Shown: positions 40,827-64,000 of the stretch, one piece after another
Layout: the number at the start of each line of letters is the position of its first letter
Position numbering within the stretch: position 1 is the first letter of the stretch
Source: Trichodelitschia bisporula
Lineage: Eukaryota
Length of the DNA stretch: 64,000 nucleotides
Direction of reading: 5' to 3'
Assembly: GCA_010356995.1 (NCBI GenBank)
Contig: ML996687.1
Location: forward strand, 1,427,803 to 1,491,802
Notes under the pieces: generated by a model
What the model saw: the letters and a program-made list of their open reading frames with translations, nothing else
Databases searched by the model: none
Told to the model about the DNA's origin: nothing
Position numbers and translations under genes: made by a program

Positions 40827-43292
40827 CTATCCCAATACCGCAGCCACTGTCCCTGCAACAGTTACCCACCACCATTGCCAGGCGCGCACTAACTCCCCTG
40901 CGTTCTTCGCCGGCTTTGCCTTGGAAGACCCAGTTCCAGCTCCAGTTCCAGAGCTTCCCCCAGAGTCTCCGCCCCCTCCAGAGCCCCAGCTCCCTCCAGG
41001 ACCCTCCGACATGTCGTTCCCTTCAGTCCCGGAACTACTTATACCGCCAGCTCCACCCTTCCCTCCACCCGCACCTCCGCCTCCCACCGCTCCGCCCTCC
41101 CTTCCTCCCCCTTGTCCTCTCCCGCCACCCTCACCGCTACTCCCACCAGCATTCGCCCCTCCAAACACTATATCCGCCAAATCTCCTCGCCCGGCACCCA
41201 CTAACATCTCCGGCGTAAGCACGACCTCGGCCACGGCCCCATCAGTCGGCCCTCCTCTCCCACTTCCTCCCCTTACACTCCCTCTCCCGCTTTGCCCGCC
41301 TGTCCCGCCACTCCCACTCTCCGTCCCGGGCCTCCCCTCTCCACCCCCTCTGGCACCGGTTCCCTCGCCCTCCACCCTGGGTCGTCCCACACCTCCCCCT
41401 CCCTCTCCGCCGCTCCCGCCCTCCGCTCCAGGGCTTCCACCTCCTCCCCCACCCCCTCCGCCGCTCCAACCCTCCGCTCCAGGCCTTGTCCCTCCCCCGT
41501 CCCCTCCGCCACTCCCGCCCTCCGCTCCAGGCCGCCCCCCTCCCCGCCCGCCAGCAACCCCCATATCCGTCCACCCAACCGTCACCCCCCTCGCCCAATC
41601 CACCGCAGTCAGCACCACGCCAGCGGTCCCTGCACTCAGCACCACGCCATTCGCCGTCACCGCCGCGCCCGACGCGAGAGTAATATCCCCACGGGGCCGC
41701 GCGCTAGGGGCCGCCGGCTCAGGCTGCGCCCTCGGACCAGGCGCCAGAGTCGGGCCCGGCCCGGGCAGCGGCACACTCCCCGGTCTAGCCTCAGGCACGT
41801 CATCAAGTCCCGGCTCGTCAGACGCCGCCAGACTCCCCACGCCAGGCGTGGGCGCTAGCGCAGACGGCAGGGCCTGCACGTCGGCAGTGCTAAAAACGCG
41901 CGGCGGGTCGACGAGGCGGAATATCGTGTTCCAGGTGCAGTCAGCCCACTCGGGCCACAGAGTAGGGATGATGTCGTTGCTCAAGGCGATGGCATAGAGG
42001 TAATGCCCGTTGTAGGCAAGCCAATCAGTCCAACTTTCGAGAGCCGGTCCCAATCCGGCGGCCTTTACCGTCTGCTGAAAGCCCCAGATGTTCTCGCCAG
42101 GGTCCCTGGGTCGTGGGGCTGTGCCCTCGTATGCGGCATTGAGCGCGCTGAAGGGCACGGGCGGCGCGAGGTCCGCAAAATTCAGCCTCTCGGGGCGCGC
42201 GTTGAAGCGCAGCGTACTGAGCGCGCTACTCGGCAGTGCAATAAGGACGTCTGTCCGCGATGCTTCCCACCGCGGGGGACCAACCCGCAATGCAATCAAC
42301 GTTGCAATGCGCACGTACGCCAGCGACGCCCACAGCGTGGTGCCCGCCGTCACGACAGAGCCCGTGCGGGGCACGGTGCGGGTTCCGGTGAGTGGCGTCG
42401 GGCTGTGGGCGCACATGTCGCGCCCAGCCACGGCGGCGGGGTCCGCGCCGAAGTGCCACACCTCCACGTCCTCGCCCCTAAGGTTGCAGCCGTACTGGCC
42501 GGGGCCGTCGAGGTTCAGGCAGAAGCGCGGGAGGGGTGCGCTGGCTGGCGAGGCGTACCACGCATCCCACTCTGCTGCCGAGACCACGGCGTCCTCGGGC
42601 GCAGCGAGGTCGCAGTTCAAGGGGTAGTTGGGCTGCAGTGAGGGCGGGGTAATCATTGTGGTGTAGACGGCTGGGATGTAGGTTGTAGGTGTGGGGAGAA
42701 TGTCCCCGGTAAAGTAGGTGAGGGTGCCGCAGGCGACGGAGGTGGAGAAGGGTGTTGGGATCCACATCGTGGAGGTTGTGTAGCACGGCTCCATCGTGTT
42801 GAGGAATGGCTCTCCAAGGTCTGGGCATGCGGGGTGGATGGATAGGGCGAGGGTGAGGGTTGTGAGCGGGACGGGTTTGACGAAGGCGGTACACTGAGTA
42901 GAAAAGGATACTACGCCGAAGCTGTCGACTGTGTCCCAATTTGTGGCATCACAGCTCGCCCCCGTTCGCCATGATACGTAGGGTGCAATGATGTCGCTAC
43001 CTGGCGCTTTGGTCCATTCGAGCCCTTCCGTTTGCCACGATACGGAGGATGCGATGATATCGCTGCCCGACCCTTTGGTGATCCATTCGGGCACTGCTGT
43101 ACTCCAGGGTTCACGATAACCAATGCTGCCATTGCCTGGCGTTTCGGCCGTCCATTCGGGCAACACTTGACCGGTCGTATTCTCGTTGCTAGTTGTGTTC
43201 TGCGGCAGGGGGTATGGCGGTATGTCCGTCGCTCGCGCCGTCACAGTGAGAACTGTGAGCAACCACATCTGTATTGGACCCAGACGAGCCAT
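40827..43292 (-). CDS. Large secreted, probably GPI-anchored cell-surface protein with Gly-rich repeats (821 aa)
   Basis: Intronless ORF with signal peptide, Cys/Trp-containing globular region, GGxRPGAEGGSGG repeats (about 41300-41550) and a hydrophobic C-terminal tail. Confidence 0.82.
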   Translation of the reverse strand: MARLGPIQMWLLTVLTVTARATDIPPYPLPQNTTSNENTTGQVLPEWTAETPGNGSIGYREPWSTAVPEWITKGSGSDIIASSVSWQTEGLEWTKAPGSDIIAPYVSWRTGASCDATNWDTVDSFGVVSFSTQCTAFVKPVPLTTLTLALSIHPACPDLGEPFLNTMEPCYTTSTMWIPTPFSTSVACGTLTYFTGDILPTPTTYIPAVYTTMITPPSLQPNYPLNCDLAAPEDAVVSAAEWDAWYASPASAPLPRFCLNLDGPGQYGCNLRGEDVEVWHFGADPAAVAGRDMCAHSPTPLTGTRTVPRTGSVVTAGTTLWASLAYVRIATLIALRVGPPRWEASRTDVLIALPSSALSTLRFNARPERLNFADLAPPVPFSALNAAYEGTAPRPRDPGENIWGFQQTVKAAGLGPALESWTDWLAYNGHYLYAIALSNDIIPTLWPEWADCTWNTIFRLVDPPRVFSTADVQALPSALAPTPGVGSLAASDEPGLDDVPEARPGSVPLPGPGPTLAPGPRAQPEPAAPSARPRGDITLASGAAVTANGVVLSAGTAGVVLTAVDWARGVTVGWTDMGVAGGRGGGRPGAEGGSGGGDGGGTRPGAEGWSGGGGGGGGGSPGAEGGSGGEGGGGVGRPRVEGEGTGARGGGEGRPGTESGSGGTGGQSGRGSVRGGSGRGGPTDGAVAEVVLTPEMLVGAGRGDLADIVFGGANAGGSSGEGGGRGQGGGREGGAVGGGGAGGGKGGAGGISSSGTEGNDMSEGPGGSWGSGGGGDSGGSSGTGAGTGSSKAKPAKNAGELVRAWQWWWVTVAGTVAAVLG

Positions 43293-43904: not shown

Positions 43905-44137
43905 CACCAGCATATATCACCAGCACACAGCAGCTTAACCCTCCAAAAGCGTCCATAGGTAATAAGAACCCCCCTTCTTAACCAGCGTCAACCCGTGCAA
44001 ATATATAGTCTCTTGTCCGTGCCCAATGTCCATGCCAATGCCCCATCTAACCCCACCAGAACGCAATCTCAAGGGCCTCATCACGAAAAGCCAGCCTGCA
44101 CAAACCCCACAAGCACTCGCAAATTCCCCAGTATCAA

Positions 44138-47100
44138 TCAATGCAGTGCATCCGCCTTCGCAAACTCCTGCGCCTCCTGGTACAAGTCGATAATGCAGCC
44201 CGCGGACCACGCCTGCGTCGGACACTACGTTTCATTAGCCTCCCATTCCCCACATCACGAGCCAATATCCCGGAACTCACCGAATCTCCGCAGAATGCGC
44301 CCTTCAAGTTCGTCAACTCCGTCAACCCCGCCCAGGGACTGTTATGAAGCATATCCACACACCCCTTCAGGCGCCGGGTAATCTGCTGATAGCTCTCAAC
44401 GCGCTCGGCCGGGGTCTTGCGCCTCGCAAGATCGAAGCGCAGCAGCGCGCGCAGGAAGAATCCCGTCGGCCACAGCCACTCCGGGCCCTGGTGGTAGTTG
44501 CGTCCTTTAGCTATGTGGAAGTCGTCCGAATCGTCAGAGTTGATGTAGTTAGGGCGGTAATTAAGGTCGCTCGGGTCGAGCGTCGCCATGCCAGTGGGGC
44601 CACGGAGGGCGGAGTCCGCGAGGGAGAGCGCGTACAGCGCCTTGGCCGGGTCGAACAGATCCGGCGCCACGACCATGGCGATCGGGAAGTTGGGCCGCAG
44701 TTGGTAGTCCTCGTACGGCTTGCCCGAGCGGTACAGGTCCTTGTAGATACCGCGCCGGTTCACGATCTTGCTGTCAATGTCGTAGGCGCTGTCCTCGTCC
44801 TTGCTCCGCGGGATGTAGTAACACCGCTCGAACGCGCCCTTGATCCGATCGGCCCAGTCCTTCCAGGACACGAACTGCGTCGCGCCGCCCGCACCCGCAG
44901 GCGCGTCAACGCCCTTGTACTTGTACTTTCCCTTGGCGGACAGGCCCTCGAGCCACCGCAGCGTGCTGTACAACATGCCCGTGATTTCGACAGCGGCTCC
45001 GTCGCGCGGCGTCCCCGGCACGCCCTTGGAATTCGCCTTCGCGCTCTCGCCCATCTTGTCCATCCAAGTGCCGCAGTTGAACTGGTTGCCGCCGAAGATC
45101 AGCCCATTGGTCCAGTCGACGTGCACCTCGATCTGGAAGCCCGGGTCGCTCATCTGGCTGTCCAGGTTCGGTCCCGCGTTGTACTCGCGGAACGACAGGC
45201 CCGTGGCATGCCGCTGCATGGCCTCCTGCACAACGTCCTCGATAGTTGACTCAACCGAATAAGCGCGTTTGTCATCCCACGCGAACCACTCGTCGTTGTA
45301 GGGCAGGAAGCGGCGCTTGACAGACGCCTTGAGCAGATCCAGTCCCTTGGGAGCGATCTTGGTGAAGTCCTGGATGCACTGCAGGAAGAACCAAACCGAG
45401 TCGCGCGAGTTATACCGCGGCAGCTTGCCGCTACCCAGCAGATTCGGGATCATGCCATGCTTGAGCACACTCGCAAACGCCAGGATGTGCTCCTTCGCAT
45501 CTGCATACCGCCCTGTGCAGACCAACAGCCCGCGCATCGCCAGCATGATATCGCGCCCCCAGCAGCGCGCCCAGTCGTTGGCAAAGTGCGGCAGACCCGC
45601 CGCCATACTGGGCACTAGCCGGTCCGGCCACAGCGACGCATTCGTCTGGTAGCCGACAACCTGAACGCTGACGAGGCTGAGGCCGCGCAAAAAGTCGCTT
45701 CCGCCCCTAACGTTAGCGCTCATGAGCTCCACGGCCCGGTCAACGCCCGCGCTGTACAGCGTCTGGATCACCAAAGCAAAGTACCGCGGCAGCAAGAAAT
45801 TGGGAAGCTTGCGGATCGCATTGAAGCGGTCGTGCAGCCACACTGCAACGGGCTTGAGGTTGGCCCAGCGCTCCAGCGACGCCGCACGCTCCACACGCCC
45901 GACGCAGTAGTCCAGTGCCCACTGACCCTCGCGCAGGTGCTGGCACAGCGGATGGGCAAGGTTGTTTTCGCGCACGATGTCGCGCAGCACACTCTGCCAT
46001 CCCTGAAGGCCGGCGTAGGCGAGCGACCCATGCCCGGGCACATTGTACACGCCGTCTTTGCCGCCACTCGCGTCACGCTCCTCAGGATCGCAGCGGTACA
46101 GCAAGAAGTTGAGGTCGGCAAGTTTGAGTTTGGCGCATGCCTCGCCGCCGCCACGCGTCATTAACTTGTCCACGCCCTCTGAATGCTCGGCGCCCGGGAT
46201 CCAGGTCTCGAATAGCGCGATGCTGCCAGGCGGGAAGCGCTCGCTAACTTGGATCACCGTCTCCGAGACGCACCAGTCGCACGTTACGCCGCGTAGAGCG
46301 ATCGTACGAGAAGGCAGCCCGCGCAGCACCTTGTCGTTGATAGCAGCGTTCTTTGCATCAGCGCTGGTGTCGACCTCCAGCATCCACGAGCCGAGCGCCT
46401 TCGCACGAGTACCAGGCAGACGCACAGGCGGGAAGCCTCCATTGCCGTTGCCGTAGCCAGGGAAGGCAGTATGCGCAATGAGGAAGAAGCCCTTACGCGA
46501 CTGCGGATGCACACGGTGAATGGTAATGTACTCGCGGTCGTGGTGAATGAAGGTCTCATCGTACCCATCCTTGCCCATGAGCACATGGATGGAATTGAGC
46601 AGCTTCTTGATGCCGCCAATCCCGCCCTCACCGGCCGACACCTTGAGCTCGCGGTCGGTGGAGTACGGTGATGTGTACGGCCGCTTCTCATGCACCAGCT
46701 CAATCAGGTTCGGGTAAATCTCGTCGTAGCCCATGACACTGCCCGTGGCACACGCGCACATGGCCACAAGTGCCGCATTGGGCAGCGTGTCGCGCGCGTC
46801 GCGCTTCTGTGCCGGCGTCTCGTTGTCATGTGTACAGTCGCAGAAGAGCGCGTGGACAGGGCTCTGCTTGATGCGACGGATCACCTCGCGGCGCTCGGGT
46901 TGGCCTGGATCGACGGCCGAAGAGTTAACGTGCTTCGGCTTTGCGGCGTTGGTCACCTCGTCCGTATCGAAGCTGCCGATTGGCACGCCGGCATGTCGGT
47001 GAACGAGACGGCTGAGCTCGCGCGTGTCCCATGCTTGCATGGCCTCGCGGATGAGGCAGCTGATGCCGAGCTGCCCGACGTAGACAAAGTCCATTTTCTC

Positions 47101-48910
47101 GGAGCCAGAAAACAGCTCAGCACATACCACTAGATCAGGCCGCACCGCGCGCGCCTCGTCCAGCATGTACTGGGCCAGGTGCAGCGGCGTCGAGTGGCAG
47201 TTATCGATGCGGAAGCCGGCAAAGTACTTGGCCATCAGCCGCGTGTACTTGCCGATGAAGTCCCACAGGAACGGGTTGTCTTCCGGGCCCTTGCCGTACC
47301 GGAGCTTCACGCAGTCGCCCCATACGATGACCTCACGGCGCAGGTATGCACGCGACTTCCAGCTTGCGTTGTCCTTGAGGACATCCGCCGCCCACACCCA
47401 CCCGTTATTGATCAGCTGCAACGCATTTTTTGGATGCTTCCGCGTGGTCTCGTTGTCCGGCAAGCGGGTGAAGTACGTCTCAATGAGCGGCGAGTCCTTG
47501 CTAATGGGACCGAGCTTGGGGCCGTGGTCGTCGATACGCACGTAGCGGATCCGGTTGAACAGCTGCTCCAGAATGGCGCCACAGTCGCCGTCGTACTCCT
47601 TGTACAGCTCCAGGTTCACATCGTCCAGGAGCTTTTTAACGAATTCTGTTGCCTGCGAGTCACCGCTACCCGAGTCGAACCGCCCGACAGCGCCCGTAAC
47701 AAGTGCAGCGCCGATCTTGGGATCTAGTCTGCGGCGGAATCGTTCTCCCAGTCGGTCCATACCCACCAGGCCGTTCGCCATGACCCAGTCAACGCACTGC
47801 TTAGGAGGCCACTTGTTCGCGTCGCTGAGCTCTGGGAAACGCGCATCGGGAGCCTTGCCCTGGTGCCAAGCATCAAGGACAGCCTGCAAGTCACGCTTAA
47901 TCTCCAGTACATAGTACTGCCAGAGCATGATCTTCGAAATGCCGTGCTCGCGAATGCCGGACATGACCTTGAGCAGCTCGTCCGTGTTCTTGAGGTCCGT
48001 CGGGTAGCCGAGGGACCCCATGTTGCTGCCGAACTCGAGCAGCGCATCGTCTAGGGCCAACGCACATTCCAACCAGGGAGCTGTCTGCACGCTGTAACCG
48101 GCTTCAGGATGCGCCTCGAGCCACTTGCTGTTGTTGGCCGTGTGGTTCCAAACCACGTCCGTCAGGCTGAGAATGCCGTAGTCCTTCTCCATGCGGGAGA
48201 CTAGGTCCGCAATGTCCGACTCACCGTTCGGGAAGATTTCCTTGTCGAACTGGAGCTGGTCGTAAATGCTGTACGGCGAGTTTGAGTCTCCGCGCATCAT
48301 GAGCGGCGTGAAGTGGATCATGTTGTAACCCCGCTGCGAGATGCCCGACAGGTGGTTGTTCCAGTCCTTCGGGTAGCTGCCCATAAACTTGGAGATAGCC
48401 GAACACATGGAGATGGCATCGAGGGGCAGTGGCGAGCCCTGGAGGGATAGCCTCGGGCATACATCGATGTAGTATGTCTCGGTGCGCTTCGGCGCGGGCG
48501 TCTCAACGGGCTCGGTGGAGAAGGGCGGAAGCGGCGTGTAAGTGGTGTAGAAGCCGAAAGCGCCGGCGCAGTACACGGGGATGTCGATAAGGATGGGACG
48601 GTTGAAATCTGGGGTCAATCTTGTGGGGGTGGCAAGGTCAGCGGGAGGTCCAACGAAACGCGCAAGAGACCAACTTGAACTCGCGCCACTTGTCGCGCTT
48701 GAACGTCTCGCCCTTGGCCGGCAAGTTGACCCAGAGACTGCCCTCGCGACATATCGAGCTCGTGCCCTCGATGCTGAAGCGAATGAAGTAGACGGGATCA
48801 GAGGGCGGCGGCATGTAAATGTAGGTGCCGATCACATCGGGCGATCCATCGTCCTTCAATGGTAGAATGTAGATGTTCTGAGGCGCCGGCACGGTACCCG
48901 GCGGAGCCAT
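44138..48910 (-). CDS. GDB1: Glycogen debranching enzyme
   Basis: GFRIDNCHSTP, DCTHDNE, WARCWGRD, GTWMDKMG, NYHQGPEW, TQAWS. Introns 48674-48620 (AAG acceptor) and 44280-44225. Confidence 0.96.
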
Positions 48911-49867
48911 TGTAGGTGATTTAGGGAGCGATTGCGCGCTCCGGGAGGTGACGGGAGGCTGCGAGGGGGGTTTCTGGGACATGCAGAGAAGGTGGCTGGT
49001 GGGGCTACCGAAACTCGCGACTAAGGGCGCGATGGGATACACCAGACGCTCACTTGGTCACAGTTGGCAACAATGTTGAGCAAAGAAGCGACAAGATTGA
49101 GGTGAAAGTCAAATAGGTAGTAAGAAGATGGCGAGAAAGGATGAAAGCAGGAAGACGGGGAGAATGTGGGAGGAGAGAGACGAAAGCGGCAGAGGTGGCG
49201 GGGTGATGGGGGGTTTTAACCTGCAAGGCCTTCGCTCCTGTGCCGTGTTTCCTGCAAGGCCGTGTCTGTTTACACCTGCGAGCTAGCTTTTCCTCTATCT
49301 GCAGGTGGAGATGATGCTGTAGTGGGAAGGGGATTGCCCTGGCATTAACCCCTCCTGCGTGAGCTGCTTTGCTGTTGCGCCCAGCTGGCTGAGAAGCATG
49401 GGGGAGGGGCAGGGGACCGGGAGAAAGGGCAGCCTATGACATATGCCAAGCAATGCCTGTACCTGGCAGCAGCTAGCGTACGTGGGGCAGTTGGCGCTGG
49501 CGGTGAGGGGTGAAGGGATGCAAAAGTCTTGTGGAAGATGGAAGAGGTGGAAAAGAGCGAAGCGGTGTATACAAAGCGGGAAGCTAGCAGAGGTCCAGAG
49601 CTAAAGTTTCATTACTGAAGGAGCTAGGAGCTAGGAGCTACAGCGCAGAGCTACAGCTGTAAACAGCACAGCTTCCCCGCACCGATCGCCATGCCCCTCC
49701 TCTATGTACTCTGCAGCTCTCGCCCCCGCTATCTACGCTTCAATTTCCCTGCCCAGACTCCACTTGCCAATGCACGGATAGTATGAAAGGGGGTATCGAT
49801 GTGACAATCTCCCGTAGCAAAGCAAGCGCACTCGACTCCTTCCTCCATCCATCCATGGATTCGCACT

Positions 49868-51185
49868 CTACGAGTCCTTGGGCTCAATCAATTCCGGAAT
49901 CTGCTCCGGCTTGACGTTGCCCTGCAGGATATTGTGCACAGCTGTGAAGAGCGGGAAGTCGTTCTCCATGCCACGCCCACGCAGCAGCAGATTGACCTCA
50001 ACAGCCGTCGACGTGCCCTGCAGCTTCTGCCCATTGAGCTCCAGGCGCTCAACCTCGTCAATCGACATGCAGCGCTCGATGCTCATCTTCGCACAGCGGA
50101 AGTTGCGCCCGCCCATGCAGCTCGTCACCACATCAGCTACACCGCAGCTCTCCTCCGTAAACGTCGACGTGTGCACCGTATCGCCGAAGAATGTCTTGCC
50201 GAACTTGACCATCTCCAGAATTCCAATTCGCATCACCGCCGACTTGGCATTATCACCCCATCCCAGACCGTCAACCCAGCCCGCCGCCAGCGCGATGATG
50301 TTTTTCAAAGCACCGCCGAGGGACACGCCCGCCACGTCCGACGTCATCTGCACGTGGAAGTAAGGCCGGTGGAACAGGTGGCGCACGTTCTCGTGGTTGA
50401 GAGGAGGGTAGTCGGCGGGGAGCGGAGTGAGGCGCGCAGAGCGCTTGCGCGGCTCACCGGACGGGTCGACGAGGTTGATGGTCGATGCCGACGGCGAGCC
50501 ACCATGCGGCGTGCCGATGGGGGTCGGGTGGCGCGAGTCCATGAGCGGCGGGTCGTAGGCAATGGTCGTCTCACACCACTTGCCCTGGGCGATCTCGCTC
50601 GCGATGTTGGCACCCGACAGCGCGCCGCAGTAGATCCCGAGCTTGCGGCCAATCTGCTCGCTCAGCAGGGTAACGCCGGACTCGTCGACCTCGATGCCCT
50701 TGATACACGAGATGCCGCGGGCGTAGGGGAGGATCTTGCCGTGCAGAGATTCGCAGATACGGTTGATGAACTGATGCGGCAGATTGAAGATGAGGATGGT
50801 GGAGTCCTTGACTGCGTCTGGAAGCGAAGGGTTGGCGACAACGTTGCTCGGCAGTGTGATGCCCGGCAGGTACTTGACGTTCTCGTGCAGTCTGTTGATG
50901 ATGAGGGAGAGAGGCTGCGGCGTTATGCACAGCTCCGAGCCGGCATCGAAGTGGCGGGATGTCTTCGGGATGGTCACTTGCTCCTCAAACACCCACATCT
51001 GCACCTCTTCTTCAAAGAGCTGTGGGTAGGCACGCGTGTTCTCGGCAATGACCTTGGAGATGGTAGAACCCCTTCAGCGGCGTTAGCAGCGGGCAGTGAC
51101 TGTTCGGGAATGGGAAGACAAACCAGTTGCCGGAGCCGACAATGGTGACCTTGTGACGCTTGACATGAACACCGAGCGAAGCCAT
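49868..51185 (-). CDS. GPD1: NAD-dependent glycerol-3-phosphate dehydrogenase
   Basis: [13 protein letters not shown] across intron 51124-51072 (AAG acceptor); [22 protein letters not shown]. An in-frame upstream ATG lies at 51308. Confidence 0.95.
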
Positions 51186-52090
51186 GGTGCGCGACTGTAT
51201 AAGATGAAGTTTGCGAGCTCGCGGAGGGAAGCGGAGTGTGGAGTAACGGGGAACAAACAGCGGGGAAGATGGGGAAGTGTAAAAAAAAGTGCGGGGAGCA
51301 ATTCTCATGTACTCGTGCGCGGGGGGAAAGGGGGAAGAGGGGAAGGATTGAGTAGGTAAGTAGATACGCTTTCTAACAAGTTTTTGAGAAGGCAAAAAAA
51401 CTGTTGAGAGTTCACGATAGTTGTTGGTCCTTGTGATGCCCGTACGCCGTTTGCCCTTGCTTTGTGCATGATGCGTCGTCACAAGCCACTGACGGTACTA
51501 AGCGGAAAACCGCGGGGAGCAGAGAAGAATCCTGCACCGCCACCGAGTTCCGAGGTCAGTATTCGTGGCAGTGCATAAGAGTCTGGACTCGTGACAACTG
51601 AGAAGGACTGATTGGCTTCACAGCACCAGTGTCGTTCAACGCTGGACGGACGACATATCGCGAGAGAGAAAGAGGTGAATTTTCCCATACGTCCGATGTC
51701 AAAGTATCTACCATTTCCTCATTGGGCCTTTCGAAAACCAATTGCTCGAACAGGACTCGCACGACCGATTTATAGTCCGCTTACTGATGCTCTCAACACC
51801 CGGAAAGCAACTCACACATCCCAGCAAGCTGCAGCTCTCCCTCCGTTCCCCCGCCATAACCCACATGAGCCCAAGACCCCGCCGAGCCCTCACCTAACCC
51901 CTCACCGATGCCGGGTCCACGAATTTTCAGCCCGCCACCCTGCCTACCACTCATCCCATCGCTGCTAATTGCCCGTTCACTCACCTCTCTCCCATCACCA
52001 ATTCGCCCACATCTCGTCCGTCGTCAATCTAGACCTCCTCATCCCCATCACCACCACCGCCCCCTCCACACCAACCTCACTCCCCCCACC

Positions 52091-53116
52091 ATGTCCGTCG
52101 AAGCCGCCAAACGCGCCGCCGCCCGCGCCGCCGTAGCTGCCCACTTCAGTCCCTCCTACACCTACGTCGGCATCGGTTCGGGAACAACAATAATCTACGT
52201 CGTCGACGCCATCAAAGACGCACTCGCCGCCTCCTCCCCGCGCGCCCGCCGCGCCAGCCTCGCAAAACCCACCTCCACCGCCCCCAGCATCAACCACCCG
52301 CACCTCTCCTCCAGCCCGAGCACCAGTGCCGTAGTCGCCGACTCCGAGCACGACCTGCCGCCACACCACACGATCCACTTCGTGCCCACGGGGTACCAGT
52401 CCCGACAGGTTATTCTAAAGGCGGGCCTGACGCCGACGCTGTTCGATCACCTCCCTGATGCTGTGGTGTTGGATGTGGCGTTTGATGGCGCAGATGAGGT
52501 GGATGAGGAGTTGAACTGCATTAAGGGCGGGGGTGCGTGTCTCTTCCAGGAGAAGCTCGTGGCCGAGCGGGCACGGCGCTTCGTGTGTGTCGCTGGTGCG
52601 TTCCTTCCTCACCCTTTCCCCCGTGCCTTCCTTACCAGCCCTAACCCCGCATCAGACTACCGCAAGTCCCAACCCCGCCTCCTAACCTCCTGGCCCACAA
52701 TCCCCATCGAAGTCGCCCCCATCGCCGTCTCCCCCGTCCTGCGCTCCCTAAAAGCCCTCGGTTCCCCAGACCCCATCGTCCGCCCCGGCGCGCTCGACAA
52801 ATCGGGCCCCCTGAAAACAGACCAAGACTTCTTCATCATCGACGCGCCCTTCCCGACCCTCCTGACCACCAAGGACGTATCCGCGGGCGCCAAGGGTGAT
52901 GGCAGCGATGGGAAGTGGGAAGTCCAGGCGCTGAGCCGTGCGATCAAGGCGATCACGGGCGTGTTGGAGGTAGGCCTGTTTGCTGGGAGTGATGGGGATG
53001 AGATTGCGGCGAAGGGAGGGAAGGCAGGTGGACAGAAGCCCGTGGCCGTGTATTTTGGAATGGAGGATGGGAGTGTTGTAAAGCGGACGCAGGGGGGGGA
53101 TGAGAAGCTGGCATAG
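52091..53116 (+). CDS. RKI1: Ribose-5-phosphate isomerase A
   Basis: GIGSGTT, DGADEVD, KGGGACLFQEK, VLEVGLF; intron 52596-52655. An in-frame upstream ATG lies at 51908. Confidence 0.95.
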   Translation: MSVEAAKRAAARAAVAAHFSPSYTYVGIGSGTTIIYVVDAIKDALAASSPRARRASLAKPTSTAPSINHPHLSSSPSTSAVVADSEHDLPPHHTIHFVPTGYQSRQVILKAGLTPTLFDHLPDAVVLDVAFDGADEVDEELNCIKGGGACLFQEKLVAERARRFVCVAGAFLPHPFPRAFLTSPNPASDYRKSQPRLLTSWPTIPIEVAPIAVSPVLRSLKALGSPDPIVRPGALDKSGPLKTDQDFFIIDAPFPTLLTTKDVSAGAKGDGSDGKWEVQALSRAIKAITGVLEVGLFAGSDGDEIAAKGGKAGGQKPVAVYFGMEDGSVVKRTQGGDEKLA

Positions 53117-53588
53117 GTGTGGTTGTATACCCATGAGGTCGGTACGGTTGATAGACTAGAATGGAGTTTTGGGATGCGTGGACCCGCCGGGTGGCGCATG
53201 CGACGTGCCACCGTATCTCAATCCGATCGCGACAACCGCAGGCTGACACCTTCCCCATTGAACACAAGGCTCGCACCAGCCTCGCCAAGCGCGGCACCTC
53301 ATCCGAACCTACATTGGCATCAGCATCATTAAATTCGGTACGGCACTTCATCCAAACCAGCCTCGGTGTCAGCATCATTAATCCGCTTCATTACGCGCTT
53401 GCCTACAGATCCGACGCATCGCCTCCACCTTCAGCAACGTCGCAAACAATGCCCATCAACAATGTCCATGCACATAACCTTGTCCCGATCCCCGCATCTA
53501 AAACGCAGGAAAAGAAGCAGTCACCAGCATCCTGAACCCATCCGACCCTCGCTCATTAATCATCACCTCGGTCTCTCCCACTCCCCGT

Positions 53589-54216
53589 TTACAAGGCCAC
53601 ACCGAACAAACCCCCAAGCAGCACACACACACCCACAACACCCCACTCCTTGCCCACACGCATAACCGCCGCCGCACTCTTCGCCGACGCACTCGCACTA
53701 GGGCTGCTCGTGCCAGAGGACGAACCGGTAGCGCTCGAACCCGAAGCAGACGCCGACGACGTACCGGAGGGACCCTTAATCCCCGCGGTTGCGTTCTTGC
53801 GGCCGCACAGGAAGGACTGGCAGAAGGTCTGACCGGCGAGATCGTTGGGGTGGGCGGCGGTGCACTGCGCAACCCAGTTGTCGCACTCGAGGGAGGGGAG
53901 CGTTTGCGCGTAGTCGCTGATGTTGGGCGTGTTGCCGGTCAGACAGGTGCAGGTGAAGGTGAGCTTGGTCTGGAGGGGGAGATTAGTATTTGGGGGGATG
54001 GGATGGGGTGGGGGGACGTACCGAGTCGCAGGTGTTCTCCTTCGTCTGGCCGTTGCAAACCTCGGGGCAGGTGTTCGTCTGAGCGCGGCACCACGACGCG
54101 CGCGTAGGACCGTCAACGCTGTTCGGCTCGATGTTGCAGCAGGATGTGAAGTTTGACTGGGCGGTGGTGGCACCGATGAGGGCCGCGCAGCCGACGAGGA
54201 AGGTTGAGAAGCGCAT
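53589..54216 (-). CDS. Small Cys-rich secreted, GPI-anchored protein
   Basis: Signal peptide, about 12 Cys, Ser-rich stalk and GPI-like tail; intron 54021-53970. Confidence 0.88.
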
Positions 54217-56218
54217 TGTGAGTTGTGGTATGGATAACTGGTTGCGGGGGGTTAGGTTAGAAGGATTTGGGGGGTGTGGTTTTTTTTTGGGTTCGTGAGA
54301 GGTGAGGATTGGGGATTGGGAGGGGGCGTGGAGCTGTGGTGCGCGACGGCCCGTGATAAAGAGCTTCGTTGCGCCGCAGAGCTACCGTTGCTGCTGCAGC
54401 TTGTGCCGCCAAGCCGCGTACCCAGGAGGCGGGCGAGGCGCGGGATTGGATGGGGTGGGGGGCTGGGGAATGCAGATTGGCGGCTTACCTTGGTTTTTAG
54501 AGGCGGCTGGTGGTGTGGGATGCAGAAGCTTGGTTTTTTTGTACGCTTGCTTTGCAGGAGGCGGGGGAGTGAGGAGGTAGGGAAACGTTTGGCGGGGGAG
54601 AGTGAGATGCGGGTTTGGGTGGAGATGGGGGGTGGTGGGAGAGAAGAAGAAGAACAAGAAGAATCTCGCGAACCTCGGAGTGGGGGGGGGGGAATGCAGG
54701 AACTTTATGCCACTGAACAAAAGTGGCAGAAAGCGCAAAGCGAACCGCCCGCCGGTTATCCTTCACTAGCTCCGAGAATCAAAGGCAAGGCGCATTGACT
54801 CTGGCCAGCGGAAATTGGCCCTTGCTTTGCTTGCTTGAGTCGTTCTGGGAAGCGGAAAGCGGAAAGTTGAATTGGAAGTGGAAGTTGGAGATCCGAAGCA
54901 GCAAGCGATGCCCACCCAGCAGAACGATGCAGGTTGCGCCTCTTTTTTCCTCTTCCCTCCATTTGTTTGCCATTTCTCTCCTCCTCAACAACCAGCCCTT
55001 TCTGCTTCCGTGCATGCTTATCGGCGCTGAGGCCGCGTATTGCCCCGAGCTGGCTTGCGACACTAGTCCCGTTTGTGGATAATTGCCCGCCGGCGCAACA
55101 ACAGGATGGAGTCGTCTGATCTCACGATGTTGAGGGTGCCCAGCAATAATGCGGTTCTTGAGGCTTTACAGACGCGTTGACTACGACACTTGGCCTGCCT
55201 TGCATCGGAGCACATGCGTCTCGGCATTCTCTATCCGCGGACACCTCATACTCGTACCTTTTTGTCGCCGATGGAACTGAATTGCGTTTGCCCTCCATAA
55301 CTACCCCGTGAATGTTTAATTCCATCTCAACCACCACCAAGCTCCTGCAATCTGCTCATCCGCAAGACCTCTCCTCCTCATTGAACCTTCCCACCACTCC
55401 GTCAACCTCAGTCTCTCCCTCACTCCCCGAAATCCGGTGCACATTCAGCTGACTTCATCCCCATCGCCGCCGCCCCGCCGTTCGACGCGTCGCACTCGAT
55501 CTCGAACCCCACCCACTGACGCGAATCAAGCTTTCCCGCCAAGCCCCTATCATGCACCACCATGATAGGCGCCCATGCAATTGGTCCAGGAACGCCTACC
55601 GTCGCAGCGAATGACACCCGCCTCCGCTTAACGTTGTTAAACCGCCACAGTTTGAACTTCGTCAACCGTCGCGGGTGTTGCTGGAGCCACGTCCGCTGGA
55701 ACTGCTGTTGGCTCGGCGCAGGCAGCGTACGGATGTAGAAACCGGAGTTCCACCGCTTGTCCATGTCGAGCTCCGCGCGAACAGGATACCATTGTGGCGT
55801 CAATTTGCGATGACGGCAACCGCGCGAACGGCGTCGCTATCACTAGCCCATCTCTGCGAAATTTGTGGCGCAGACCACGACGCCGGGCGTGCGCCTGTTT
55901 GTGATGTCGGCAGCGTTGCTTTGGCAGCGGCCGATCGCCGCACGTGGCTGGGAATCAAAGCACACCGCCGCCCCGCTGCATGCCTTACCATCGGGCAAAG
56001 TTCGTCCTCGCGTCGACCCGAGTTTAGCGTCTGCCGCTTCCTTTTCCGGATGTCTCTGCTCTTTTGGTTCGGGAGTTTAGCGTCCACTTCCCGCTGTTAA
56101 CGCCCGGCCCGACGCGAGCCAATCTCCCCTCCTCCGACTTCTGCGCACCCGGTCTGCATACTGTACTTCCGTATGCATGTGGGTTACGAGTCTGCGGTTT
56201 TGGAGCATCAAGTGGACA

Positions 56219-56303
56219 GCCTGGGTAGCTCAATCGGTAGAGCGTGTGACTCTTACACCAAGGGATTATCTCAAGGTCGCGGGTTCGAGCCCCGCCTCGG
56301 GCT
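56219..56303 (+). tRNA. tRNA-Lys (CTT) with 12-nt intron (56256-56267)
   Basis: Cloverleaf: acceptor GCCTGGG/CTCGGGC, A-box TAGCTCAATCGG, anticodon CTT at 56252-56254, B-box GGTTCGAGCC. The intron sits at the canonical 37/38 position. Confidence 0.88.
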
Positions 56304-57263
56304 GGAGTTGTGTGCGGTTCTCTTGATGCCTGAAAGGTCCGTTAAGGGACCGCAGCGGGTGCATGCGTGTAGCATGTGAAGTAGAGCTTTACACGACTGT
56401 CTTTTTTTTGCAGTTTTGAGGCAATTGCAGGGGAGTCAGTGACGACTGGGGAAGTGAGAAAGTTGCTGATGGAGTCGAGGACGTACGCTTTAAGGATCTT
56501 TCTGTGGGCGAAGAGTGTTAAGTAGAGAATGTGCTCACGAATTTTGCAGATTTTGCTCCTTCCATTTTGACCTCTGAGTGACGTCAGTTCTGTCCCGCGG
56601 CCACGCATTTGAATTCTCACTTCGCCTCTCATGAATAAACTCAATGCCTCTACTTCTTGTTCATGAAGGGTAGGGGGGTACTGAGGTTGAACCGGCACGT
56701 CAGCCTACGCTTCGAGACGCTATATACCCACGATACACGCAGCCCATGGCGCCTACACTGCGTGAAGCTGGTAATCGCACCATCCATCCCGCTTGGTTTA
56801 TTTTGAGAAAAGTTTCTTCTCGTACGAGAGCTCGTCATCCGCACAGTTATCCGAGGTCTCCCAGTACTTAGGGCGAGCAGAGCCGACGAAGAATGGAGCA
56901 AAACACCGAGCATGATGTGAACTTAAGGAAGGGGCATTGGTGTCCCTGGAAGGAACTTTCTTACTGAGGAAGTGACATATGGCAAGACTGGAAGGAACGC
57001 TGGGTAAGCTCGGAAGGAGCATACGTAGCAAGCATGATAAGTAGACTTGACTACCCTGCCGCTCACCTTTTTTGTTCTTTGTCGTCGATTTTACTCTCAA
57101 TCATGCACTTGTTTTGCACACGAGCCGCAGTGACGCTTCCATGTGAGGATTTTATGACCAGCTGTCTCCAGCTGCAAATCAACCCTCACAGCGGGTCACT
57201 TCTTCCTCCTAGTCCTCATGTGGCATAGAAGCGGGATTCCCACGCCGTCTCGATCATCACGAC

Positions 57264-57507
57264 TGCCCGGGAAGTCGGGTAACCGTCTACTTTCACAGCT
57301 GAGTACTAAAGCGCTTTTAAAGCCGGACAACTGACCACTGCTAGAGATCGGGTAACCGAGACCATCCAGAAGCCGTCCTGCCGCATCGTCGGGAAACGGG
57401 ATGACCGAGCAGATACGGGGGCCGGGTAACCTAGTTCTTCCAGGATCGGGTAACTGAGTCCGTACGGAACCGGGTGATACGAACCCGTCCAAAGCCAGGC
57501 AACCAGC
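57264..57507 (-). repeat. Array 2: ten ~24-bp units of the same CTCGGTTACCCG family, inverted relative to array 1
   Basis: CGGGTAAC occurs at 57276, 57349, 57423 and 57447, with more degenerate units in 24-25 nt register. Confidence 0.85.
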
Positions 57508-57530
57508 CATCCCTCTTCGCCGCTCGCCCT

Positions 57531-59038
57531 CTACTTCTGAATCACATAAAACCCACCAACCTCGACCAACAACGCACTCACCGCCGCGAAACTCCCAAGC
57601 CACCCCACGAGCGGCCCAATCACCAGCCCCAACAAGCAATGCCGCACCACCGTTCCCCACGGCAGACCCGCATCATAATCCTGTACAAGCACCCCCCATG
57701 CCATTCCCGCGAGACTGAACCCGTTCTCAAGACACAGCATCAGCAACAGCCACCAGGGCAAGCGGCGCGGCCCACCCGAGGCCAGAAAATAGAGCCGTCT
57801 GTAGCCGTTAGCTCGCGGCGAGATAAAGGAGGGAGGAAGTACAAAAGTCCTTCAGCCAGTCCCCAAGCCCACGTCAGGATATACACCCGCGCGCACACCT
57901 CGCCCATGCTCCACAGCCCCGCCGCCCAGCGCCGACGCTGGCGCACGAAATCCGCTAGGCTGGTGGGAGGCTGCTCCCGCGCGATGGCGGGGATCCAGCC
58001 TAGCTTGTAGCCGCGCTTCTGGGCTTCAACACCAAACCAATAGTCCTCGGCCAAACAGCCGGTCTCCCACCCTATCTCGCACTCCGCCCCGCCCCGGACA
58101 AGCAACCAACTCCCATGCAAGCCCCACACGCTGCGCCCCGCCCATACGCATTGCCAACTGTACCGGCCCCAGTCCTCGCCTGCCCTGGCGCAGTCTGCTA
58201 CAGTCCATAGCGACGACGACCAGTGCGCGTACGCGTTGTATTGCAGCACACCCTGCGCCATGTCGACCTCACCCCGGGCCGCGACCGCGCGTGCCGCCGC
58301 CAGCGCGTGGGCGTCCAGTACCGTTTCTTCGTCGAGGTGTAGGATCCAGTCGTCCGCGCCGGGTCGGGTGACGGAGAGGAAGAAGGAAAGTGCACGGGCT
58401 TTGTGCTGCGCAACAGGGGGGAGGTAGGTGTCCGGGATGACGTGGAGGGTTATGTACGGGTGGGAGGTGAGCGCGTGGAAGCGCCCCGTTGTACCCGGTT
58501 CCGTCACGATGTGCAGTTCCGCGGGGAGGATGGATGATTGAGCTGCTGAGAGGGACGGGAGGAGCGCGGCGACGGAGCGGTGCACGGCACTGGCATTGCG
58601 CCCGCGCGTGACGAGGCAGAGGAGGAGGCGTGGGGGTGGTTCCGCTGGCTTCTCGGTCGGAGTACACTTTTCGGCCGGGCCGGACTTCGTGGCTAGAGGC
58701 TGCCCCGCGACCTCCAGGTTCAGCGGTAGGAGTAAGCAAGCACAGTTCACCCAGCCCAACCAGCGGGCGGGCACGATGGCGGCGAGCAGGAGGACGATAT
58801 CGAGGCGTGATGCTGGGATGGGCGTGCCGAGGTGCGGGAGGGCGTAGGTGAGCAGCGTGATGAGCGTGGCGAGGGTCAGGATGAAGGGTCGGAGGTAGCG
58901 TGCTGCGAGGTTGAGAGTGGCCTGCGTGTCGAAGGGTTTGCGGGGCGTGTCGTAGACGGTGCGGCAGAGCGTGGGCTTGCGTCTGCGGCGGGGGATGGTG
59001 AGGCCGGGGGCGGGGAGGTAGAGAATGGAGGTGAGCAT
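57531..59038 (-). CDS. GT2 glycosyltransferase, egghead/BRE-3 (beta-1,4-mannosyltransferase)-like
   Basis: KARAL, WILHLDEET, LAEDYWF, QRRRW. Intron 57842-57799 joins a TM C-terminus ending FYVIQK*. Confidence 0.85.
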
Positions 59039-59628
59039 TGTAATGGAGGGAGGGAACTGTGGGGGGAAAGCAGCGGAGCACGAAGGCTGCTGGGTCCCGA
59101 GTGGTGATACTTATTCGCTGGCGGTGCAGACTCGAGAGATGCATGTCTCGATACTGCATGTCTTATTTGGCGGCGGCGATCGCGGATCGGCAGAGGGGAG
59201 ATGGCTCCGAGACCGAGACTGCGGCCTGCATGTGTATTAGCAGAATGCATCCCGATAAGTCGCCGGGAATACATGGCCTCGATTGAAAGAGACAGTCGAG
59301 TGCAGAGTTGAGGTCGAAGCCTTGCGTCGGCGTAGTCCAGCCAGCCAAGGGGGCTAGCCTTGCGACGAAGTGCCCAGCAAAATCCATGGGAGGCATCCCC
59401 GGTCGGCATATCTGATCGCAGCCACCAATCACAGCATTCGCCCAGCATCACCACCAGATCCAAAGATCCAACATGCAGATCCATCACGCGCCGATCCTCA
59501 AGCGCCGATCCTCGATTCGATTCATCTACTTTTTTTTTACCGTCCAAAATCAGAGCACCCAGCATATAGCATATTCATACAACGAAGCTTACAAGGCATA
59601 CACAAGCAAACAAGCAACACATGCACCT

Positions 59629-61052
59629 CTACCCCCGCTGCCCCCTCGCCTTCGCCTTCCGCCGCCGAACCTCGGCGTTGGCATTCGGCGCCGCCGCACC
59701 ATCTAGCGCCGCGTCCTCCTCGTCTTCAGGCACGTCCGCGTACACCGGCTCCTCCACGTTCTGGCCGAGCAGGCGGCCGACGGTGCTGCGGTACATGAGG
59801 CCGGGTAGCTTGAACAGCACGGTGTCGCGGATGGTCGGCTGAGAGATTTCGTTTTCCTGATCCGCGTTAGCATAATCCTTTACATGGTCCTATGGTTCAA
59901 GGGCTCCCGAAAATGCCATGTCGCCTCAACCCTGCCAGACTCTTGCAGGAGGGGGATGACATGACCTTTTCAGGTCGCTCTTGGCGGTACGTACATCAAG
60001 CAGAAACTCATGCGTCTGCCCATCCTGCGTCTCCTCCTCGAGGAACACATTCCCAACGCTGTCCACAATGAGCACCTTCCCGTTCTGCGCAGTGACGCGC
60101 TTCTTCGCGCCCTGCGGTCCGGTAGCAGGGGCCTCGGTCTCGACGGGCGTGCTGCTGCCCTCTTTCTTCGCCGCCGCTGACTTGCGCGGGTTCTTGGCGG
60201 CCTTGCGGCTCTCGCGCTCCTGCAGGCGCTTCTGCCGGCGATTCCACGCAACCGCCTCGCCCTCGCTCGCCGGCGGGGTGTCGTAGCCCGTCGCAGCTGC
60301 AGAGGTAGCGTCGACGCCCGGGATACCCGCAATGCCGCTCTCGTCGCCCCACGCCATGCGGCGCGCATTGCGGATATACGCAGACACAAACGAGCGCTGA
60401 CGGCGCCAGGAAACGTACAGCGCCGCATAATGCGCCACACCGCCCATGACCACAACGAGCCCGATCAGCACACTCCCAATCCCCGGGCGGAAACGCTCAT
60501 AATAATACCCCGTGCCGCGCCAAGCCGGAAACCCATGCTTGAGAAAGTAATCATAGCGCTCCCTATTCTCGCCGCGGAGCACATTGGCCACGGCGCTGAG
60601 GCGCGCGTACCTATCTTCGGCGGCCTTGTGGGCGGCGGCAATTTCGCGTTGGGTGGGTTTCTTGTGCACGATGGGTTTGCCGGTAGGTTTTTGGCCGGGG
60701 GGAGGTTTACCGTAGTTGGCGATGAAGGATTGGCGGGCTTTGTCTGGGTGCAGGCGGGCGGAGAGACGCCGGTAGGCGCGGTTTATGTCGTCTTGCGATG
60801 CGGAGGGCGGGACGCCGATGAAGGTGTAGAAGGTGCTGTTTGGGCCCTGGTCGGCTTTGAGGGCGTCGTTGAGTTGGAAGATTTCGTGGTCTGGGAGGGG
60901 GGGGAGGGTTAGCTGACGAATCTACAATGGCACACCTACAATTGCACCGGGGTACAGTCGAGGACACGAAGTGACGTACCTTCTTTGGTCCACGCAGCCG
61001 TGAACGAGGTGAAGAACACCAGAACGGCGGTGAGAAAGGCCAGGGACTTCAT
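59629..61052 (-). CDS. ER membrane DnaJ-domain protein (Erj5-like)
   Basis: Signal peptide, WTKEDHEIF, HPD motif, RERYDYFLKHGFPAWRGTGYYY, TM helix; introns 60979-60891 and 59994-59857. Confidence 0.92.
59897..59984. mobile_element. Palindromic dispersed element, copy 3, inside DnaJ intron 2
   Basis: TCAAGGGCTCCCGAAAATGCCATGTC..GACATGACCTTTTCAGGTCGCTCTTG; about 42-bp imperfect stem. Confidence 0.72.
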
Positions 61053-62055
61053 CTTGACGGCTTCTGGCGACGGCTCTTCTCAACGGGTTCTCCTTCTCTT
61101 TCCCTGCCGAATTGCGGTTCCTGTGATCCGCAGCGGGGTTGGTGGGAAAGTCAAGAAAGGCTGTGAGCAAAGCAGAGAGCAGAGAATGGCAAACTAGAGG
61201 AGTGGTTTATGCAGGACCGGGCGAACTTGAGGCTGTCTGTACGTGGGTCGACGTGGCAGCAACAGCTGGAAGACCAATGGGAAGAGTGCAGATGGTGAGA
61301 CTTTAGACCATAGCGTCTTGTATAAAGCGGAGGCGGGGTGGAAGGGAAGAGGACAGGTTTATGTGAGGAGCAGCTCTTCTCGTCCTTGTTGGTGACGAAG
61401 TGATGATGAGCTGACAAGAGAAGGGGGAGAAGTTTTTATTCTCCTCTCCTTTCAACTCAATCAATTTTGAAGTCGACACGGGGAAGAAGATATTGCGGTG
61501 TTGGCGCGCACAAGTTCCAACGCCAAAAAGCCTCTCTCACTCTCCCCCCCCCTCCCGTTGCCCCCGTCCCGACTCCGCTTGACACTTGACGAACAGGGGG
61601 CAAAAGTGTTGGCTCAGCTGAAAGAAGAGAGCGCGAGAGAGACAGAAAGGCAGAAAGTGGAAGCCTAACCATCCTTCTTTTCTCTACAAAACCTTTGCAA
61701 CAACATCAGCTGCACAATTCCCCTTCGTCGACTTCATTCAAGGATCCATCACTTCGACATCGCCTTATCTTTCATTTTCTACTCCTTCTCCTCTACGTGC
61801 TCTCATTATCCAACACTCTAAGGTTCGTAGCTCATTCTGTGCACTTCTCTCCCCCAAACAAGCAACGTTGCCAGTTGGACCAACACTATCCATCTATCTC
61901 TGGCACCTACACCGTCTCGTCTCGTCCAAAGGCTAATCAGGAAGCACCTACCAACAGTTTTCCGCCCAAAAGTTCGCCACCAACAGCTTCCATCCGTCCA
62001 CTATAATAACCCTACACCCCACCCAGCTCCCTGCACTCCTTCTCACATCCCGGCA

Positions 62056-62589
62056 ATGCCTCCGTCGGTGAACATACCCATCGAGGCGCTGACCTCGCGC
62101 TTCAACCTGTCGGGCCGCTTCGAGAATGTGCGGTCAACATCCCTGGCGACGCGCTTCGCCAACCTGCGTCCGATCAGCGAGTTCTTCGACTTCAAGCGGT
62201 TGTCGAAGCCGCAGAACTTTGGCGAGGCTCAGTCACGCGTCAACTACAACCTCGGATACTTCTCCAGCAACTATGCGGCTGTGTTCGTGATGCTCAGCAT
62301 CTACAGCTTGCTGACGAACCTGACGCTGCTGTTTGTCATCTTCCTCGTGGTCGGCGGCATGTGGGGCATCGGAAAACTCGGCGGTCAGGACCTCGACATC
62401 ATGGGGTTCCGTGCCACAACCTCGCAGCTCTACACGGGTCTGCTATGCGTCGCCATTCCGCTCACCTTCATCTCCTCACCCTTCACAACCCTGCTGTGGC
62501 TCATTGGCGCGAGCGGCGTGACCATCATCGGCCACGCATCCTTCATGGACAAGCCCATCGAGTCAGCTTTTTCCGAGGAGGCGGTCTAG
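62056..62589 (+). CDS. YIP3: PRA1 family / prenylated Rab acceptor
   Basis: LRPISEFFD..RVNYNLGYFSSNY, hydrophobic hairpins, GHASFMDKPIE. A 5'-UTR intron at 61823-61957 is possible. Confidence 0.93.
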   Translation: MPPSVNIPIEALTSRFNLSGRFENVRSTSLATRFANLRPISEFFDFKRLSKPQNFGEAQSRVNYNLGYFSSNYAAVFVMLSIYSLLTNLTLLFVIFLVVGGMWGIGKLGGQDLDIMGFRATTSQLYTGLLCVAIPLTFISSPFTTLLWLIGASGVTIIGHASFMDKPIESAFSEEAV

Positions 62590-62615
62590 GTGGTCGGCCG
62601 CGAACTCCACAATAT

Positions 62616-63818
62616 ATGCCCCAATGGGGAAGACCACCGGGGCGCGCGGGGGGGAGGAGTCGAGAGGAGCGAGAGCGATGGGCTGCGCAGCAGGCCCGGT
62701 GGGACGGCGCGCGCTTCGAGGAGGTGACGAGCGAAGACGAAGAGGTGGACCAGGAGGAGATTATGGGGGCGAACGGCGTTCTTTCATTGACTTCCAAGCC
62801 GCATTATGTTTCAGACGAGTTATTTTTCAACGACGGCGACTCCAGATACCCGCGCCGTCGCCGCGACCCTCCTCCCGCCGAGGCACAACTCGCCTACGGC
62901 GAGTACTACAGTTCGGACGAACACGACGACGACGACCCGCGCAGGAGCAGCGCCGGCCGCCGGAATGACGACCACGCGGCCTTTCTCCGCGCCCGCGCCC
63001 TGCACCGCATCGACCGCGCCAAAGCTCAGGGAAAAGGCATGGTCACACTCACCCACGACGAGCTCGAGGCCCTCCGCGGCGGCGCACCCTCGGCACCTTC
63101 CGCACCCCCAGCACTACCATCCCAGGCCCCAGCACCACCGAGCCCGGCCCGCGCCTCCAGCAGCCGCTCCCGCGAGCGCTCTCGCGAGCCTGTACGCGTC
63201 AAGGGCGCACGACGGCCGAGCCTCCTGGCGCCAGCTAAGACGCGCAGTAGCAAGACCGCACCGACGAGCAAGCGCAAGGACTCGGGCGAGAGCGCGCACT
63301 CGGCGTCGGCGCCTTCGAGAGCGCTGACCCCCGTGCAGCCGGCGTATTCTGCGCGGCGGCCTATTGGGTCGGCAGACTCGTCGCCGCGGGCGAGTCGGAT
63401 CCCGTCGGACGCGAGTGCTCGTGCACCTGTGTACCCGTCCCCGCCTGATGTCCGCCCGACATCGAGCAGCTCACGCGCGTCGTCCCGGCCGATTGATTCA
63501 GATTCGGATCATGTTATGCGTGGGAGTCCGGGGGCGTGGCCGGAGCGAGAGTATGCGTATGGCGTGCGGCAGGGGGATGTGGTGTATTCGAGTGTGTACC
63601 GGAGGCCGCCGCCTGCGAACCGCGCGCCGCATTCGGATCCTATCATCGGTGGGAGTGGGCTGGCGAATGAGTATGAGGTTAGTAGCTTTGGGTCGGAGGA
63701 TGGGTCGGATAAGCAAGGGCGTGTGCGGGAGGACAAGACGTCTGGTGGTGATAAAAGCAAGAGACGCGAGCGGGAACGGGAGCGCGACGTGCCCAAAGCA
63801 AGACGACGGCGGCATTGA
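62616..63818 (+). CDS. Uncharacterised low-complexity protein (400 aa) directly behind YIP3
   Basis: Long ORF with coding-like codon bias and a helical core ALHRIDRAKAQGKGMVTLTHDELEAL. ATG at 62616 (weak context) or 62763. Confidence 0.78.
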   Translation: MPQWGRPPGRAGGRSREERERWAAQQARWDGARFEEVTSEDEEVDQEEIMGANGVLSLTSKPHYVSDELFFNDGDSRYPRRRRDPPPAEAQLAYGEYYSSDEHDDDDPRRSSAGRRNDDHAAFLRARALHRIDRAKAQGKGMVTLTHDELEALRGGAPSAPSAPPALPSQAPAPPSPARASSSRSRERSREPVRVKGARRPSLLAPAKTRSSKTAPTSKRKDSGESAHSASAPSRALTPVQPAYSARRPIGSADSSPRASRIPSDASARAPVYPSPPDVRPTSSSSRASSRPIDSDSDHVMRGSPGAWPEREYAYGVRQGDVVYSSVYRRPPPANRAPHSDPIIGGSGLANEYEVSSFGSEDGSDKQGRVREDKTSGGDKSKRRERERERDVPKARRRRH

Positions 63819-64000
63819 CAAGACAATGGGATCTGGAATTGCAGGGTTTGGTGTAGTCCTTTTTACTCTCTACTGTGCCTGGGAATAGACTTGTGTGCTT
63901 CTTCTTCTCCCTTTTCTGGTGGATAGGAGCAATGCATCCGCTAGTATTTCTTTATTCTTCTTTGTTCTAGTGTATAAAAAGCGTGGTGTTGTACGGGATC

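Follow-up and report, generated by a model that had tools for sequence, protein, structure and literature searches.

Among fungal repeats, mimp and Guest are examples of MITEs or foldback elements, and hairpins of pre-miRNA-like size occur in mirtrons and fungal milRNA precursors. Work by van der Burgt et al. in 2012 is said to have dealt with introner-like elements (ILEs). General features of MITEs are outlined in PMC5172404, and the ILEs of the Dothideomycetes described in PMC4457414 are whole introns that are repeated and newly gained. In S. cerevisiae, zipper stems in long introns, for example in RPS17B, shorten the structural branch-point distance, and mutants showed that the pairing matters (PMC2536676).

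Here, we compared with these systems an 86-nt hairpin in the second intron of an Erj5-like DnaJ gene of Trichodelitschia bisporula, which lies in a DNA stretch of 64,000 nucleotides (the window). The features discussed are collected in Table 1. We consider it reasonably probable that an 86-nt MITE-like repeat inserted in an old intron of 52 nt, that the enlarged intron is precisely spliced, and that the element is a neutral passenger.

Table 1 Positions of the DnaJ gene, the repeat copies and neighbouring features in the window
Feature	Positions	Strand	Size or location	Basis or remarks
Atg1-like kinase with MIT domains	3-2771	-		Pfam
Copy B of the repeat	5237-5335		99 nt	Palindrome scan, profile, covariance model
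Donor-like GTGAGA	5340-5345	-	4 nt before copy B; start 10 nt before palindrome	Candidate site
Copy C of the repeat	30539-30634		96 nt	Palindrome scan, profile, covariance model
Donor-like GTAAGA	30636-30641	-	1 nt before copy C; start 7 nt before palindrome	Candidate site
DDX23/Prp28-like DEAD-box helicase	30868-33000	-		Pfam
Family-2 glycosyltransferase	57743-59110	-		Pfam
DnaJ gene, exon 3	59629-59856	-	75 aa plus stop	
DnaJ gene (Erj5-like), intron 2	59857-59994	-	138 nt, phase 0	RNA-like joint 59856/59995
Branch motif CTAAC, intron 2	59866-59870	-	Intron positions 125-129	27 nt after hairpin, 10 nt from 3' splice site
Copy A of the repeat, 86-nt hairpin	59898-59983		Intron positions 12-97	Folding; HMM match from B and C only; match of covariance model R1
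5' splice site GTACGT, intron 2	59989-59994	-	5 nt before hairpin	
DnaJ gene, exon 2	59995-60890	-		J domain with HPD, transmembrane stretch, conserved ...VDSVGNV...EFLLD end
DnaJ gene, intron 1	60891-60979	-	89 nt	Unstructured, z +0.53; spliced in RNA-like runs
DnaJ gene, exon 1	60980-61052	-		Start codon and signal-like N-terminus

The DnaJ gene consists of three exons on the minus strand, which sum to exactly 398 codons. Exon 2 was 100% identical in translation to a 398-aa protein (P0003) with the source name 'DnaJ domain protein [Trichodelitschia bisporula]', and it encodes a DnaJ domain (PF00226, E 1.7e-10); relatives of the protein are annotated as Erj5, a J-protein of the ER. Four public runs cover the locus: X3 and X4, taken as RNA and coming from one sample, and two DNA runs. 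Their contigs were compared over positions 44001-64000 of the window, and the repeat copies B and C lie outside that range. Results showed that contigs of X3 and X4 join 59856 to 59995, omitting exactly the 138 bases of intron 2, and that contigs of the two DNA runs have no joint at this intron, nor at the other introns. The signals of the intron are GTACGT...CTAAC...CAG, an internal AG of the hairpin was not used as a splice site, and read-through would lead to a stop after 23 codons. The splice sites that a first-pass annotation of this DNA had assumed are thus correct, and its length of 138 nt for the intron is confirmed both by the RNA-like joint and by the exon sum that matches P0003. A 14-nt tandem repeat in 2.5 copies (GATCCTCAAGCGCC, 59478-59513) closely follows the DnaJ coding sequence at its 3' end.

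Besides intron 2, ten further joints with GT..AG or CT..AC ends were present in the X3 and X4 contigs. The RNA-supported introns in 44001-64000 (n = 10) measured 44, 52, 52, 55, 56, 60, 89, 122/135, 138 and 251 nt. The earlier statement that most introns here are 42-75 nt long held for six of these ten, but the 138-nt intron, long as it is, was not the longest. That rank belongs to a 251-nt intron (54238-54488, minus strand), moderately structured over its first ~160 nt (z -2.53) and C-rich and unstructured in the last third, where there is an A9 run. In the plus-strand gene adjacent to the DnaJ gene, alternative 3' splice sites give introns of 122 nt (61823-61944) and 135 nt (61823-61957); X3 and X4 both contained the 135-nt form, and the 122-nt form was confined to X4.

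The age and usual length of the intron position were read from 79 metagenome loci encoding protein relatives, of which 60 hold the exon 2/3 junction and 58 were resolvable. An intron was present at the identical phase-0 site, after ...E-x-L-L-D, in 44 of the 58. The junction was without an intron in 14 loci, and the contig ended inside the intron in 2. Four of the 14 intron-less loci are short contigs with an unbroken match, which may be transcripts, and the other ten are contigs of 2-747 kb. The same intron pattern was visible in ORF-called proteins of the relatives, which read through as LLDV(S/C)... These results indicate that the position of DnaJ intron 2 is old; as 14 of 58 relatives lack the intron, it could conceivably have been lost and then regained in this lineage.

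Forty distinct orthologous introns ranged from 48 to 103 nt (median 55.5, mode 52, seven of them exactly 52 nt), and DnaJ intron 2 was longer than all of them. Taking the 86-nt hairpin out of the 138 nt leaves 11 + 41 = 52 nt, the modal length among the relatives, in agreement with the earlier remark that the remainder is a typical intron length. The orthologous introns were unstructured, with a mean z of +0.23, energies of 0 to -13.9 kcal/mol and 1 of 40 at z <= -2. A comparison of orthologous introns had been proposed with the expectation of about 50 nt and no element, and introns of this kind were indeed found, but in relatives that are 45-66% identical in protein, with no close sister species among them. 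One orthologous intron of 57 nt (locus L003) was alone of the 40 in having a notably low energy (-13.2 kcal/mol, z -3.84, 0 of 100 shuffles).

In RNA sense (59983-59898) the hairpin was predicted to form one stem-loop with 33 pairs (18 G-C, 11 A-U and 4 G-U), and the first-pass description of about 33 of 42 positions paired, several as G-U, was accurate. Its folding energy was -37.8 kcal/mol, with z -3.19 and 2 of 200 shuffles folding as well, so the comparison with shuffled sequence came out in favour of the fold. The plus strand reached the same -37.8 kcal/mol (z -3.93, 0 of 200 shuffles as good), and the whole intron reached -46.7 kcal/mol (z -2.30, 5 of 200). In a pre-mRNA context of 258 nt, which includes 60 nt from each flanking exon, 30 of the 33 hairpin pairs had a probability above 0.5 and the mean pair probability was 0.89; on this folding model the hairpin very probably forms in the pre-mRNA. 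Raw energy as a test was discarded for its poor discrimination in this G+C-rich window (59% G+C): 251 (plus) and 332 (minus) of 12783 windows of 86 nt folded at -37.8 kcal/mol or below, which places the hairpin in the 2.0-2.6% tail. The fold by itself is not overwhelming evidence. The strongest 86-nt folds of the window were found at 29521-29606 (-56.7 kcal/mol) and 42326-42411 (-55.1 kcal/mol).

The palindrome score is likewise not overwhelming by itself. Scored as an ungapped Watson-Crick palindrome it reached 14, a score attained at 4 of 127754 axes, compared with a mean of 0.57 per shuffled window. Three of the four axes scoring at least 14, at 59940, 5283.5 and 30587, correspond to copies A, B and C of one repeat family. 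A palindrome near axis 42548 (score 16) is unrelated to this family and lies inside a long minus-strand ORF. Copy B follows the stop of a minus-strand ORF of 720 aa at a distance of ~470 nt downstream and lies in DNA without recognised coding sequence; copy C is found 231 nt downstream of the stop codon of the minus-strand DDX23/Prp28-like helicase ORF, and it too overlaps no recognised coding sequence. The copies have common termini (CAAGGGCT...AGCCCTTG, with the left end of copy C diverged), and A, B and C share the arms CGAAAA(A)GTCAYGTC / GACATGAC(T/C)TTTTC and the loop motif CTGCCA. All three have the same orientation.

When B and C alone were used to build an nhmmer profile, it retrieved copy A with an envelope of exactly 59898-59983 (E 9.5e-6). 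The match covers profile positions 4-100 of 101, and the next, unrelated match had E 1.5. Identities over ungapped columns were 65/83 (A-B), 68/82 (A-C) and 77/92 (B-C), that is, 78-84%. The consensus of the three copies has 32 pairs, and a covariance model built from them (R1) matched copy A, gave no further copy at E <5 in the window, and had no match at E up to 10 in the loci of the 79 relatives (193,907 bases). Judged by sequence similarity, the hairpin belongs to a palindromic family that is repeated in the window. A blastn-short search with the element had returned just matches of 8-15 nt; the family emerged from the palindrome scan instead.

Alignment of the flanks of A, B and C gave no homology past the palindrome, and the 11 nt before and 41 nt after copy A could not be aligned to the flanks of B and C. 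An apparent match between the upstream flank of B and the end of the DnaJ exon was dismissed as chance. No target-site duplication was present in the flanks of the three copies, and no direct repeat of 2-8 nt was found across the element ends; such a duplication may have decayed. In one contig of X2, a DNA run, the match to the DnaJ locus begins at 59960 and continues rightwards; the letters before it, at least 255 of them, are unlike the locus, are absent from the window and by eye resemble the inner part of copy C. This contig is a hint of a fourth copy at another place in the genome, perhaps one that shares the donor-side flank of A. In the literature that we consulted, no description of this repeat was found for T. 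bisporula, and the main text of the genome paper (PMC7082219) contains no occurrence of 'MITE', 'transposable' or 'intron'.

In several respects the family resembles MITEs and foldback repeats. The copies are short (86-99 nt) and non-coding, form an inverted repeat over their whole length and share termini; they have diverged, and they lie in non-coding DNA near genes, one of them inside an intron with which it is removed. Unlike in MITEs, a target-site duplication was not found at the three copies; moreover, just these three copies and the hint of one more were seen, the three within the 64-kb window, and all have the same orientation beside a donor-like motif. On its sequence features the element is best described as MITE-like. 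We use this term rather than MITE because no target-site duplication was found, no autonomous partner is known and the copies counted are those of the 64-kb window.

The match of the B and C profile, the shared intron position and the 52-nt remainder argue together for an insertion into a typical intron. The first-pass proposal of an insertion is well supported by the sister copies B and C, by the end of homology at the hairpin ends, by the 44 of 58 relatives with the intron, and by the length of the remainder; the two sister copies in particular strengthen this reading at the level of sequence. A copy of the palindromic repeat, which three copies within the window suggest to be mobile, would have landed by transposition between positions 11 and 12 of the 52-nt intron, five bases behind the donor hexamer. 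Since the insertion would have left the splice signals of the old intron untouched (GTACGT at the donor, CTAAC at the branch site, CAG at the acceptor), the spliceosome still removes the enlarged intron exactly. The repeat would fold to a long hairpin and bring the donor-to-branch path from ~127 nt back to ~42 nt. We infer that the element is neutral because unstructured introns of similar length are also spliced in T. bisporula. What counts against a random insertion is that each of the three copies follows, at a distance of 1-5 nt, a donor-like hexamer on the same strand.

This adjacency raises the question of an introner-like origin. The locus agrees with ILEs in its host class, Dothideomycetes, and in having an intron that is longer than usual, strongly structured by prediction and repeated in sequence. 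It differs in that an ILE is the whole intron, newly gained. Here the repeat takes up intron positions 12-97 of 138 and leaves the splice signals outside, most relatives have an intron at this position too, and two of the three copies are found away from recognised coding sequence. As to the near-identity expected of ILE copies, identity here was 78-84%, and B and C are outside recognised coding sequence. Judged by its sequence, the repeat lacks two features that define ILEs, as it is not a whole intron and its position is not new, and the view of the first-pass annotation that this is an insertion instead of an introner-like whole intron stands on the same two observations. Nevertheless, the repeat could be an introner-like mobile intron that brings or targets a 5' splice site, with B and C also introns and the DnaJ intron rebuilt by it, which we regard as quite improbable. 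In its favour, every copy is preceded in minus sense by a GTRNGN motif: the real donor GTACGT, which starts 11 nt before the palindrome, at A, GTGAGA at B and GTAAGA at C. With GT[AG]AG occurring at a frequency of 0.00178 per position and strand, the chance for B and C both to have one within a span of 7 positions is ~1.6e-4, a value not corrected for having chosen the side and strand. Further, the 3' arms of B and C contain TGAC, then a T-run, then YAG, the X2 contig hints at a further copy that may share the donor-side flank, and ILEs can land where other species have regular introns (PMC4457414). Against it, homology among the copies ends at the palindrome, the splice signals that the DnaJ intron uses lie outside the repeat while its internal AG is unused, 44 of 58 relatives share the intron position, and removal of the repeat leaves exactly the modal 52 nt. 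The motifs beside B and C may mark UTR or non-coding introns, may reflect an element that carries or targets donors, or may be due to chance. A broader idea is that the palindromic family is an intron-associated mobile element carrying or homing to 5' splice sites, a hairpin 'introner' of a little-studied Dothideomycete order that enlarges introns and perhaps founds new ones. It would explain the GTRNGN motif 1-5 nt before all copies, their single orientation and the branch-like TGAC, T-run and YAG in the arms of B and C, and we hold it to be unlikely. As regards copy A, plain insertion into an intron already in place is better supported than a donor-linked origin.

Plain insertion leaves the question of whether the fold contributes to splicing. 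The hairpin might be functionally required, with zipping restoring a donor-branch path of ~42 nt for efficient splicing and selection keeping the stem. The predicted stability of the hairpin in its pre-mRNA context agrees with this, and branch motifs start at positions 32-46 in six short introns, a range that includes the 42 nt left after subtraction (128 - 86). As with the yeast zipper stems, pairing between the donor and the branch site would shorten the path from ~127 to ~42 nt; in yeast, however, the pairing matters, and here it would be a by-product of a palindromic repeat, while neighbouring long introns manage without it. The 135/122-nt intron at 61823-61957/61944, with its branch motif at 111, is spliced without structure (z +0.42 and +1.07), as is intron 1 of the DnaJ gene itself (89 nt) in the same runs. 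The 251-nt intron is also spliced. The length needs no rescue, because the unstructured 135/122-nt and 89-nt introns are also spliced. Nor is there any indication of selection on RNA structure: both strands of the element fold at the same energy, with no sign of strand-specific selection, a compensatory change (both sides altered, pair kept) was seen in just 1 of 32 pairs, and several pairs are broken in copy A. We therefore rate a required hairpin as rather unlikely, and the neutral passenger is ranked above a tolerance that depends on structure. The first-pass explanation that the insertion is tolerated because folding restores the distance is plausible as regards the ~42-nt path, but such folding is not needed. 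It is very improbable that the hairpin is instead a small-RNA precursor (milRNA or mirtron-like) released from the spliced intron. An imperfect hairpin of 86 nt with 33 pairs has the size of a pre-miRNA and sits in a short intron, as in mirtrons, and plants offer a precedent for repeat-derived hairpins becoming small-RNA genes (PMC3086885). Unlike a mirtron, however, it does not span the intron end to end; it is one of several decaying repeat copies in which no conserved arm stands out, and Rfam 15 gave no match at gathering score, nor at E up to 1, in 59840-60010. That the palindrome arose by chance or locally, unrelated to other loci, is hardly credible. An ungapped score of 14 is expected 0.57 times per shuffled 64-kb window and the raw energy is only in the 2-2.6% tail, but the independent profile of B and C finds the hairpin end to end (E 9.5e-6), which contradicts this explanation.

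Insertion of the repeat into an old intron makes the long DnaJ intron 2 a tidy but ordinary case. It offers a worked example of how short fungal introns grow, in which a repeat drops in, the old splice signals stay and exact removal persists. For annotators, the repeat family could be masked or modelled in the T. bisporula genome. If copies were systematically tied to donor sites, the family would bear on where fungal introner-type elements come from and how they target genes.

Elsewhere in the window, the sole Rfam match was a tRNA gene of 85 nt on the plus strand (56219-56303, 53 bits), which may hold an intron; ARAGORN did not call a tRNA at these positions. DNA contigs of both DNA runs break at this gene, with several differing loose ends at 56216-56304, as for a multi-copy gene or an adjacent repeat.
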